Sequence record: NC_054926.1
Direction: 5' to 3' (one strand)
Origin: Escherichia phage vB_EcoM_OE5505
Length of the DNA stretch: 64,000 bases
Shown here: piece by piece, positions 48,677 to 54,363 of the stretch
Numbering within the stretch: the stretch's first letter is position 1
Layout: the number at the start of each line of letters is the position of its first letter
Made by a program: the position numbers and the translations under genes
Notes under the pieces: model-generated
Told to the model about the DNA's origin: nothing
The model's input: the letters and a program-made list of their open reading frames with translations, nothing else
Databases searched by the model: none

Positions 48677-49792
48677 ATGGAAAAATTTATGGCAGAGTTT
48701 GGACAAGGATACGTCCAAACGCCATTTTTATCGGAAAGTAATTCAGTAAGATACAAAATAAGCATAGCGGGTTCTTGCCCGCTTTCTACTGCGGGGCCAT
48801 ATGTTAAATTTCAGGATAATCCCGTTGGAAATCAAACATTTAGTGCAGGTCTTCATTTAAGAGTTTTTGACCCTTCTACGGGAGCATTAGTTGATAGCAA
48901 GTCATATGCTTTTTCTGCTTCAAACAATACAACATCTGCCGCTTTTGTCAGTTTCATGAATTCTTTGTCAAACAATAGACTTGTTGCTATATTAACTAGC
49001 GGAAAGGTTAATTTTCCTCCTGAAGTGGTATCTTGGTTAAGGGGAGCAGGAACTTCAGTTTTTCCATCAGATTCAGTATTGTCAAGATTTGACGTATCAT
49101 ATGCTGCTTTTTATACTTCTTCTAAAAGAGCTATTGCATTAGAGCATGTTAAACTAAGTAATAGAAAAAGCACAGATGATTATCAAACTATTTTAGATGT
49201 TGTATTTGATAGTTTAGAAGACGTCGGAGCGACAGGATTTCCAAAAAGAACTTATGAAAGTGTAGAGCAATTCATGTCAGCAGTTGGTGGAACTAATAAC
49301 GAAATTGCGCGATTGCCAACTTCAGCTGCTATAAGTAAACTTTCTGACTATAATTTAATTCCTGGTGATGTTCTTTATCTTAAAGCACAGTTATATGCTG
49401 ATGCTGATTTACTTGATCTTGGAACTACAAACATATCCATTCGTTTTTATGATGCATCAAATGGATATATTTCCTCGACCCAAGCTGAGTTTACTGGGCA
49501 AGCTGGGTCTTGGGAATTAAAAGAAGACTATGTAGTTGTTCCAGAAAACGCCGTAGGATTTACGATATATGCACAAAGAACTGCTCAAGCAGGTCAAGGC
49601 GGCATGAGAAATTTAAGTTTTTCTGAAGTATCAAGAAATGGCGGCATTTCAAAACCTGCCGAATTTGGCGTCAACGGTATTCGCGTTAATTATGTCTGTG
49701 AATCGGCTTCACCTCCAGATATAATGGTACTTCCTACACAAGCCTCTTCTAAAACTGGCAAAGTGTTTGGGCAAGAATTTAGAGAAGTTTAA
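48677..49792 (+). CDS. 35: Long tail fibre hinge protein gp35
   Basis: 371-aa ORF, synteny. Confidence 0.8.
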   Translation: MEKFMAEFGQGYVQTPFLSESNSVRYKISIAGSCPLSTAGPYVKFQDNPVGNQTFSAGLHLRVFDPSTGALVDSKSYAFSASNNTTSAAFVSFMNSLSNNRLVAILTSGKVNFPPEVVSWLRGAGTSVFPSDSVLSRFDVSYAAFYTSSKRAIALEHVKLSNRKSTDDYQTILDVVFDSLEDVGATGFPKRTYESVEQFMSAVGGTNNEIARLPTSAAISKLSDYNLIPGDVLYLKAQLYADADLLDLGTTNISIRFYDASNGYISSTQAEFTGQAGSWELKEDYVVVPENAVGFTIYAQRTAQAGQGGMRNLSFSEVSRNGGISKPAEFGVNGIRVNYVCESASPPDIMVLPTQASSKTGKVFGQEFREV

Positions 49793-49823: not shown

Positions 49824-49831
49824 TATAAATA
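49824..49831 (+). promoter_or_regulatory. Late promoter for genes 36-37-38
   Basis: TATAAATA about 24 bp upstream of the gene 36 ATG. Confidence 0.55.
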
Positions 49832-50513: not shown

Positions 50514-53498
50514 ATGGCTACTTTAAAACAAATACAATTTAAAAGAAGCAAAACTGCAGGTCAACTTCCTGCTGCTTCAGTATTAGCCGAAGGTGAATTG
50601 GCTATTAATTTAAAAGATAAAACAATTTTCACAAAAGATGACTCAGGCAATGTTATAGAATTAGGTTTAAAATATGGAGGAACTATAAATGGATCTTTAG
50701 AGGTTACAGAAAATATAACTGGAACTTTAATTGGAAATTCTAGTACAGCTACTAAATTGCAAACACCTAGGAAAATTAATGGTATATCTTTTGATGGATC
50801 AAAGGACATTACACTAACTCCATCTGATATAAATGTAAATAGTACAACATTTATAAAAAATAATGGCGAATTACCTGTTGATGCTAATTTAGATGAGTAT
50901 GGGCCTGTTGAAGAATATCTTGGTGTTTGGTCGAAAGCAACTTCAACCAACGCTCAACCAGCAAATAAATTTCCAGAAGAAAATGCTGTAGGTGTGCTAG
51001 AAGTATTTGTGGCCGGTCAATTTGCTGGTACTCAGAGATATACAACTAGATACGGAAATGTTTATATTCGTTCCTTGACTGCTACATGGAACGGAGTAAA
51101 TGGTCCGTGGAGTGTGTGGCGAAATATTCAATCCGGTACTCGTCCACTGTCAACAACAATTGATCTTAATGATCTAGGAGGCGCTGAACACTTTGGTTTG
51201 TGGCGAAATAGTTCAAATTCTATTGCTACCTTTGACAGAAATTTCCCAGAAGAGGGGTTGTCAGCTCAAGGACTTTTAGAAGTATATGAAGGTGGAAACT
51301 ATTCTCGCACACAGAGATATACGACCAGATTTGGTGTTGTTTATACTCGCTGTCTTGCTGCTGCATGGGATGCATCTGCGCCTAATTGGGGACCGTGGCA
51401 ACAAGTCGGTAATGTCACACCAGCGACTTTCTATGATGGAGATCTGAATGATTTTAAAACTCCTGGGTTATATAATATTTTAGGCACTGATGCCGTTATT
51501 AACTGTCCTACCGGTGAAGGTTTGCCGACTGTTATTGTTGGTTTGCTGGAAGTTAAACAGCGTGCTTCTGGTGGTGCTATTTTCCAAAAATTTACTACTG
51601 CCGGAACAGGTGCAACTACCCGCGATCGTATTTTTGAGCGTGCATATACCGGCGGTGTTTGGGGTACATGGAACGAAGTATATACATCTTACTCTCTTCC
51701 AATTACTTTGGGTATGGGTGGTATTAAATCTAACTTAGCAGAGTTAGACTGGCAAACATTTGATTTTGTTCCTGGTAGTATGTTTAGCGTTCCTTTGAAC
51801 AAAATAAAGAACATGCCAGCTAATATGGATTGGGGTACGATTGACGGAAACTTAATTATGTTTTCTGTTGGTCCTAGCGAGCACACTAGCACAGGACGTA
51901 CTGTTCAGGTTTGGCGTGGTACTGTATCCCAGACAAACTACCGTTATTTTGTCGTTCGTGTGTTCGGTAATTCTGGAAATAGAACTTGCACAGTCCGCCG
52001 TGTTGTTCTTGAAGATGGTCGCCACACATGGACAGCTCAACAAGATTTTAATGGTGCTGTTAACTTCGGTGCTCCTACCAATTTTAACTCTACTGTTAAC
52101 CTTAATAACACTACCACATTTAAAACAGAAGTTAAATTCCGCTCGTCGACTGCATTCCGTATGTATGGCGGAAAATTTGGTACATTTTTACGTAATGATG
52201 GAGAGAGTCTTTATATTCTTTCCACCGACGAAGATGATCAAGATGGAAACTTTAATACAAATAGACCTTTCCGTTATGAATTAAGAACTGGTGATGTTAC
52301 TTTAGGTGGTACTAGTGGTGCTAACGTTTTAATTTTAAAACGTGATTCTCTCACCGCATTTTTTGGTGGTGATATTAACATGAAAGGCTTGATGACTTTT
52401 GACGCCGGACGTTTAGGATCACGAGATTATTTTAAATTTAACCATTGGGGTGATAGCAATAACGCTCGTGATAACATTATTCAGTTAGAAGACAGCAAAG
52501 GCGCTCATTTTTCCACTGAACGTACTTTAGCGACTGGTGCAATTAAGACTAAATTTTTTGGTGAAATTGAATCCGATGGTAAATTGGTTATTAAACGTCC
52601 GGGTGATTCTATTGTATTATCAGCACCTGCTAGTAATTCTTTGCATATTCGTGGTGACGTAGACGGGACTGGTAACTGGTATATTGGTAAGGGTGGTGAT
52701 GATAATGGATTAGCGTTCTATAGTTATGCTACTAATGCTGGTGTATACATTACAAACGCAGGGGATATCACGCTAAGTCCAAAAGGCGTCGAAATGGCTC
52801 AGGTCAATAACGTTCGATTATATGTTCATGGTGAACGTTGGACCGCTAGTCAACCAGGTGATTGGGGCAGTCAGTGGCAAGTGGAAGCGCCAATATTCGT
52901 CGATCATGGTTATGTTTCACAGGATTGTTATTATCCAATTATTAAAGGAAGAAGTGTAGTCACCAATCAAGGGTTTGTAACTGCCGTCGATCTTGGTATT
53001 CGTCGTGTCAATAACAATTGGGGACAAGCAATTATTCGTGTTGGATCTGCGGAGGCATCGCCAGCGGCTGGACACCCTAACGCGGTATTTGAATTTCATT
53101 ACGACGGTACTTTCTATTCTCCTGGTAATGGTAACTTTAACGATGTGTATATTCGTTCCGATGGTCGTCTTAAGATTAATAAAAAAGAGCTAGAAAACGG
53201 AGCACTTGAAAAAGTATGCCGACTGAAAGTTTATATTTACGATAAGGTTAAGTCTATTAAAGATCGTAGTGTTATTAAACGTGAAGTTGGTATTATTGCT
53301 CAGGACCTTGAAAAGGAATTACCGGAAGCTGTATCTAAAGTTGAAGTTGATGGATCTGATGTTCTGACAATTTCTAACTCCGCTGTAAATGCTCTTTTAA
53401 TTAAGGCTATCCAAGAAATGAGCGAAGAAATTAAAGAATTGAAAACTCCTTTCTTTACTAAAATTACTCGCAAAATTAGTAAATATTTTAAATTCTAA
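50514..53498 (+). CDS. 37: Long tail fibre distal subunit gp37, T2-type with a C-terminal intramolecular-chaperone-like domain
   Basis: 994-aa ORF; N-terminus [31 protein letters not shown]; C-terminal about 110 aa (…[28 protein letters not shown]…[16 protein letters not shown]…) resembles autoprocessed tail-fibre chaperone domains. Confidence 0.85.
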
Positions 53499-53532
53499 CA
53501 ACAAGGGGCAACGCCCCCTTTGGAGATAAATT

Positions 53533-54333
53533 ATGGCAGTAGTTGGTGTTCCTGGTTGGATTGGTAGTTCATCCGTAAATGAAACAGGACAACGATGGAT
53601 GAGTCAAGCGGCTGGTCAATTAAGATTGGGTGTTCCTTGCTGGATGAGCCAATTCGCCGGACGCTCAAAAGAGATTATTCATACCGTAACAGCAAACCAC
53701 AATTTTAATGGTCAGTGGTTCCGTGATAGATGCTTTGAAGCTGGCGGTGCACCTATTGTATTCAATATTGTTGGTGATATCGTTTCTTATTCTAAAGATG
53801 TGCCACTTTTCTTTATGTATGGTGATACGCCTAATGAATATGTTGTTCTTAATATTCATGGTGGTGTTCATATGTGGGGTCGTGGTGGTAATGGTGGATA
53901 CACTCACTCAGGAGGCGACGGTAACGGTACACAAGGCGGTCATGTTATTCAAAATGATATCGGTGGACGGCTTCGTATTTGGAACTACGGTGTTATAGCT
54001 GCTGGCGGTGGCGGCGGTGGTGGTATTGCATATCGTCCACACTCAGGGGCAAACTGGCAAGATATCGGTGGCGGTGGTGGTCGACCTTTCGGTGGCGGTG
54101 GTGGTGGCGGTTATTCCGGTGGTGCTGCTTCGTATGAAGGTCCGGGTGGTGGTTATGACTATGGTAACGCACACTCCGGCGCAGGTGGTAATGCTGGTGC
54201 TGCTGGTCAGAATGCATGGTATGACGGTGGTAAAGTTCTTAAAGTTGGTGTTGGTGGTGCGTCTGGTCATGCAGTGTTTGGGTCTTCTCCAACTTGGGGT
54301 GCTGTTGGAGCAATATATGGTCCAAGAGTATAA
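53533..54333 (+). CDS. 38: Receptor-recognising adhesin gp38 (T2/T6 type) with glycine-rich motifs
   Basis: 266-aa ORF; conserved N-terminal domain, then poly-Gly blocks ([10 protein letters not shown]…[19 protein letters not shown]) separated by variable segments. Confidence 0.8.
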
Positions 54334-54363
54334 TTTGAATAAATATCCTTAAAAGGAGGGTCT

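Follow-up and report, generated by a model that had tools for sequence, protein, structure and literature searches.

We analysed a 64,000-nucleotide stretch of Escherichia phage vB_EcoM_OE5505 (NC_054926.1), referred to here as the window, in which an intact 266-aa open reading frame was assigned to gene 38. The features of the locus, all on the + strand, are as follows.

49824..49831, + strand: T4-type late promoter TATAAATA, an exact match upstream of gene 36
50514..53498, + strand: gene 37, distal long-tail-fibre subunit of 994 aa, predicted to be capped by gp38 (ORF and Pfam)
53157..53495, + strand: predicted self-cleaving intramolecular chaperone domain, gp37 aa 882-994 (Peptidase_S74, SDGRLK)
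53522..53525, + strand: Shine-Dalgarno GGAG, 7 nt 5' of the gene 38 ATG (direct reading)
53533..54333, + strand: gene 38, receptor-recognizing adhesin (intact 266-aa ORF; Pfam, PDB and Ox2 similarity)

Gene 38 starts with ATG and ends with a TAA stop codon at 54331-54333, which is included in the interval 53533..54333. It begins 34 nt past the stop of the 994-aa gene 37 ORF, and 30 nt beyond its end starts a 218-aa ORF identified by Pfam as a T holin (gene t). With ORFs of 1289, 371 and 216 aa upstream of gene 37, the ORFs and their Pfam matches give the local gene order 34-35-36-37-38-t, that of the T-even long-tail-fibre cluster. The G+C content of gene 38 (48%, and 53% over the 3' half, compared with 36% in the window as a whole) is raised because the gene contains 70 glycine codons, 52 of which are GGT, and is not evidence of foreign origin.

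The exact late promoter at 49824 matches the position of the late promoter annotated 5' of gene 36 in phage ASO78A, and genes 36, 37 and 38 are probably co-transcribed in a late transcript starting from it. A late promoter of gene 38's own was considered and rejected, with zero exact copies of TATAAATA between 49824 and gene 38; a version with one mismatch, AATAAATA, is located 3' of gene 38 at 54338-54345 and is given as the t promoter in the ASO78A annotation. A terminator scan between genes 37 and 38 found nothing, and the GGGGC...GCCCC sequence at 53502-53522 was discarded as a gene 37/38 hairpin or terminator (-8.6 kcal/mol, z = -1.2, 27 of 200 shuffles being as stable).

Gene 38 is an ordinary gene that is already annotated, and biologically it holds nothing new. 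The exact 266-aa protein of vB_EcoM_OE5505 is deposited in RefSeq as 'tail fiber protein; host specificity' (YP_010072539.1 / QBQ79579.1) and is named 'Receptor-recognizing protein gp38' in UniRef. Clustered at 90% identity, it groups with proteins of many sequenced Tequatrovirus phages, 132 members in all; 804 records of the phage collection carry a gp38 homologue, 36 of them at 95% identity or more, and many Tequatrovirus genomes match the 12-kb tail-fibre region at 95-96.5% identity. Other records name the protein differently. In ASO78A (MZ726795), the near-identical gp38 gene ASO78A_244 is labelled 'distal long tail fiber assembly catalyst', which is annotation noise, the function name of T4 gp38 having been transferred to an unrelated adhesin; the label 'tail protein and peptidase', found for gp38 in other records, is annotation noise as well.

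To what family gp38 belongs was established by profile, sequence and fold comparison. Two Pfam families, both with a curated cut-off of 25 bits, matched the protein: GP38 (PF05268) at aa 47-266 (E 1.3e-65, 221.7 bits, profile positions 1-218 of 218) and Gp38_N (PF21721) at aa 1-42 (E 1.4e-19, 70.3 bits). A sequence search of the PDB gave two distinct matches only: at E 2e-62 the receptor-binding domain of gp38 from phage PP01 (9V85), and at E 6e-44 gp38 from Salmonella phage S16 (chain D of 6F45). The AlphaFold2 model of the gp38 monomer, built from a 54-sequence alignment, had a mean pLDDT of 85.7 and a pTM of 0.78, with pLDDT below 50 at aa 1-17 only, which is attributable to the monomer having been modelled without gp37, needed for the folding of this part. 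When the model was compared with the PDB by Foldseek, three significant matches were obtained (9V85 chains C and A, and 6F45_D; E 6.5e-26 to 3.6e-20), with TM scores of 0.89 on the target 9V85 (E 6.5e-26) and 0.75 on 6F45_D (E 3.6e-20), and the next match after these gp38 adhesins had E = 0.65. The predicted fold is a beta-helix with a polyglycine-II sandwich. S16 and PP01 gp38 have in common with gp38 here a three-domain architecture consisting of attachment helices, beta-helix and polyglycine-II sandwich; they are 43% and 59% identical to it, respectively, and differ in the distal loops, the receptor being OmpC in both. The gene 38 product is thus almost certainly a gp38 adhesin of the T2/T6/S16 type, predicted to sit at the fibre tip and to bind the receptor. 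The earlier note, made from the sequence alone, had described a 266-aa adhesin of the T2/T6 type, and sequence matches and predicted fold agree with it.

Alignment and model together allowed gp38 to be divided as follows.

53533..53670, + strand: N-terminal gp37-attachment domain, aa 1-46, with W9, W22 and W37 (Gp38_N, alignment)
53671..53871, + strand: first part of the central beta-helix domain, aa 47-113 (predicted strands, pLDDT >90)
53872..54282, + strand: specificity region, aa 114-250 (39% Gly, alignments)
aa 114-122, 157-164, 179-193, 216-225 and 241-250: glycine-rich motifs GRM1, GRM2, GRM3, GRM4 and GRM5 (alignment)
aa 123-134, 165-178, 194-215 and 226-240: hypervariable segments HVS1, HVS2, HVS3 and HVS4 (alignment)
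aa 135-156: beta-helix turn between HVS1 and GRM2, within the specificity region
54283..54330, + strand: conserved C-terminal segment returning to the beta-helix, aa 251-266 (alignment and model)

The layout follows Trojet et al. 2011 (PMC3157838), who described the C-terminal half of gp38 as four hypervariable segments set apart by five glycine-rich motifs; the boundaries given here are our own assignment after that scheme. Across the gp38 references, the GRM columns and their glycines are invariant and the HVS columns are variable. Glycine makes up 26% of gp38 overall and 39% of aa 114-250, with pure runs at 158-164 (G7), 179-183 (G5), 187-193 (G7) and 205-207 (G3). The description of the region as polyglycine blocks alternating with short variable segments was borne out as to the blocks and their alternation, and 'short' applies loosely only, the segments being 12-22 aa long. 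In the C-terminal segment, P253, W255, G259, I261 and G263 are invariant and strands are predicted at 254-262; a conserved C-terminal motif of gp38 was noted by Trojet et al. (PMC3157838). Descriptions of the gp38 family, of the modular arrangement of its GRMs and HVSs, of the Ox2/OmpA subtype and of the gp38 structure have appeared since 1987.

The N-terminal domain, likewise foreseen as a conserved gp37-attachment domain, was recognized both by its Gp38_N match and by W9, W22 and W37, which are invariant in the alignment of the gp38 proteins of Ox2, M1, T2, T6 and S16. In the crystal structure of S16, three conserved Trp fix the gp38 monomer to the gp37 trimer, which offers three equivalent pockets for them (PMC6851490), and by analogy a 3:1 docking of gp37 and gp38 may be expected here. 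The partner gp37 is 90% identical to T6 gp37 as a whole, and over the C-terminal 251 aa its identity to Ox2 gp37 reaches 98%. T4 gp37 matches the first 64 residues (aa 1-64) only, and gp37 here is therefore without the needle tip of the T4 type. At its C terminus, Pfam detected Peptidase_S74 ('chaperone of endosialidase') at aa 882-940 (E 5e-11), with the motif SDGRLK at residue 882 and a predicted cut just before S882, by which the last 113 residues would be removed. C-terminal cleavage of gp37 followed by capping with gp38 has been reported for T2 and T6 (PMC3157838), and we infer cleavage before S882 from this processing and from the family. The S74 region aligns with the corresponding region of S16 gp37 (6F45_A); no alignment was obtained between the mature gp37 tip and that of S16 beyond the S74 chaperone region, so that the interface is not checkable by homology.

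It is possible, if rather doubtful, that gp38 is an adhesin that is in addition needed for the distal half-fibre to assemble productively or to be stable. Such a dual role is compatible with the sequence and with the main explanation, and homologues carry the label 'assembly catalyst' in some databases; against it, gp37 has its own folding domain.

We next compared the two portions of gp38, split at residue 114 into an N-terminal part and a specificity domain, with those of other phages. Ox2 gp38 (CAA29158.1) was 95% identical over 266 aa with no gaps (N-terminal part 94%, specificity domain 96%), and RB32 gp38 was 86% identical over the whole protein, also with no gaps. The identities for the other phages, N-terminal part first, were 70-73% and 82-83% for FL08 and AV119, 70-72% and 84-86% for SH7, KIT03 and wV7, 95% and 50% for T6 (Tsx), 89% and 50% for M1, 62% and 47% for FL18 ('type 2' OmpA), 49% and 44% for T2 (FadL/OmpF), and 47% and 41% for S16 (OmpC); for TP7, the specificity domain was 85% identical. 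The specificity domain is free of indels relative to Ox2, RB32, FL08, AV119 and TP7. By these sequence comparisons, the subtype of gp38 is the Ox2 or 'OmpA type 1' hypervariable set, the closest named type being Ox2 and not T2/T6. Ox2 gp38 (X05675; Montag, Drexler and Henning 1987-1991) also has 266 aa and the same four HVSs without indels. It differs from gp38 here at 13 residues, seven of them at codons 46-83 in a T6-like patch described below and six in the C-terminal part (K174N, A189G, R193G, S230Y, V257A and T260A, from Ox2 to the present protein). In HVS set and GRM spacing, the gp38 proteins of FL08 and AV119 ('type 1', PMC12032242), RB32 and TP7 agree with gp38 here; those of FL08 and AV119 differ in the N-terminal attachment domain (70-73% identity). 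The loop substitutions scattered between gp38 here and those of FL08, AV119, RB32 and TP7 may adjust the range of OmpA loop variants that the adhesin accepts.

As the earlier note had proposed, gp38 was aligned with T2, T6, Ox2 and S16, by which the segments were assigned and OmpA was predicted as the receptor. Because the specificity domain resembles those of OmpA-dependent phages and gp38 relatedness predicts the receptor, OmpA is probably the primary receptor of gp38. That the receptor can be predicted from relatedness of the gp38 C-terminal domain was reported in two studies (PMC12032242; bioRxiv 10.64898/2026.04.02.716166). Among the relatives, FL08 and AV119 are OmpA-dependent on MG1655 deletion mutants and belong to the broad-range 'type 1' class (Lutz 2025, PMC12032242), RB32 requires OmpA and is LPS-sensitive (Trojet 2011, PMC3157838), and TP7 was assigned to OmpA by RB-TnSeq (bioRxiv 10.64898/2026.04.02.716166). 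Ox2 binds OmpA and is a classical OmpA phage (cited in PMC12032242), and it was likewise reported to be LPS-sensitive (PMC3157838). In addition, the segment R168-P-H-S-G-A173 of gp38 is the counterpart of R165-A170, the segment through which type 1 adhesins were modelled to make contact (PMC12032242). Given the LPS sensitivity of RB32 and Ox2, OmpA alone may not suffice as the receptor.

From the 2026 screen (bioRxiv 10.64898/2026.04.02.716166), TP7 was kept as a usable receptor anchor and two stocks were set aside: the 'Ox2' stock, which is a 51-kb BtuB-dependent siphovirus (Warwickvirus), and the 'RB33' stock, which was flagged as different from GenBank KM607001. Our literature search found no adsorption or receptor experiment for vB_EcoM_OE5505. 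The locus had also been called the host-range determinant, which stands as regards the primary protein receptor; the definite article is overstated, for gp12 and post-adsorption factors also shape host range, and the secondary LPS receptor of such phages is set by the short tail fibre gp12 (bioRxiv 10.64898/2026.04.02.716166). The prediction of broad 'type 1' recognition of OmpA variants helps in choosing cocktail phages without a common resistance route, and its practical value is small.

Taken as a whole, the explanation that we favour, with good confidence, is an Ox2-type gp38 adhesin that caps gp37 and has OmpA as its most likely primary receptor. gp37 would trimerise with the aid of its own C-terminal Peptidase_S74 domain, which would then cleave itself off before S882, and a single gp38 would dock on the exposed gp37 tip via its N-terminal helices and W9, W22 and W37. 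The GRMs would form polyglycine-II helices, packed as a rigid sandwich atop the small beta-helix, and the HVSs would be the distal loops that touch the extracellular loops of a beta-barrel protein in the outer membrane.

An adhesin with another primary receptor, its specificity shifted or widened relative to Ox2 (for example to OmpC, OmpX, Tsx or LPS), is unlikely. Point changes in the HVSs can suffice to switch the receptor, as in RB68/RB51, where the single gp38 loop substitution Q206L took RB68 from OmpF to OmpW (bioRxiv 10.64898/2026.04.02.716166), and in PST compared with T6 (PMC3157838). K174N, A189G, R193G and S230Y all lie in or beside HVS2-4 relative to Ox2, and the host-range mutants of Ox2 are a further cited case of receptor switching by point changes in gp38 loops; a full-text literature search did not find the positions of the mutations in Ox2h5, Ox2h10 and Ox2h12. 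However, five independently tested phages with this HVS set are OmpA-dependent despite up to ~18% mutual divergence in the domain; N174 and G193 are the residues of the OmpA-dependent FL08 and AV119, and Y230 occurs naturally in KIT03, all of which argues against another primary receptor. It is a long shot that K174N, A189G/R193G and S230Y broaden or change receptor use relative to wild-type Ox2 in the manner of the Ox2 host-range mutants, or, as a separate matter, that the patch around G189 is a templated micro-conversion.

This patch was revealed by comparison with ASO78A gp38 (UAW58678.1), a 99.6% identical protein with A189 instead of G189. Only 3 of the 801 nt differ, and all three (54098, 54102 and 54105) fall within 8 nt in codons 189-191 of GRM3, where GCT GGC GGC in ASO78A is replaced by GGT GGT GGT, giving A189G. 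With these three changes, the sequence TCGGTGGCGGTGGTGGT (17 nt) forms a perfect direct repeat of a copy lying 24 nt upstream in the first half of GRM3, and A189G and R193G together give the uninterrupted G7 run in GRM3. Judged by its pattern, the cluster of three nucleotides seems to stem from a templated micro-conversion and not from three separate mutations; if this were true, micro-conversion between the GRM3 halves would be a small built-in route of diversification for the adhesin. G189 was absent from all other gp38 sequences examined. For the 46-nt stretch around it, an exact pattern scan of IMG/VR gave no match, and megablast of the phage collection was empty, possibly through low-complexity masking; an exact-protein look-up located the G189 allele in the deposited vB_EcoM_OE5505 protein.

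Gene 38 is also mosaic on a larger scale. Nucleotides 53641-53823 (codons 37-97) are 98-100% identical to T6 and 75-82% to Ox2, whereas gene 38 outside this interval is 97-100% Ox2-like at the nucleotide level; of the 54 nucleotides at which the gene differs from Ox2, 40 are in the patch. The patch begins in the N-terminal attachment part and lies mostly within the part encoding aa 47-113, which indicates recombination inside the beta-helix-coding part of gene 38. Patchwork evolution is typical of the gene 38 locus (Trojet 2011, PMC3157838). By the same kind of comparison, gene 37 is a mosaic too, with several breakpoints: positions 52743-52860 are 95-98% identical to Ox2, M1 and T6 versus 63-67% to ASO78A, ASO78A is essentially identical from ~53040, and identity to T6 falls to 67-83% over ~52900-53200.

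That gp38 might be a chaperone of the T4 type, aiding the folding of gp37 and absent from the virion, can be given virtually no credence: gene number and the location after gene 37 are the sole common points, besides the 'assembly catalyst' label of the near-identical gene in the ASO78A record, and direct comparison ruled it out, the best BLASTP match to T4 gp38 (NP_049864.1) having E = 9 over 21 residues. The lengths are 266 aa here and 183 aa in T4, the Pfam, PDB and fold matches all point to the adhesin family, and an S74 chaperone domain is part of gp37 itself, which is without the T4 receptor-binding tip. In T4, gp37 bears the receptor-binding tip itself and gp38 is an unrelated 183-aa chaperone, alike to the protein studied here in gene name and in its locus between genes 37 and t only. 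The adhesin assignment had been set against best homology to T4 gp38 in the earlier note, and no such homology was found.

Apart from gene 38, the gp35 hinge protein (48677-49792, + strand) showed a match of its aa 58-112 to Pfam ILEI (E 8e-8), above the curated cut-off. ILEI is the Interleukin-like EMT inducer or FAM3-type domain; a 'GG domain' common to phage gp35 and FAM3-family proteins has been described.
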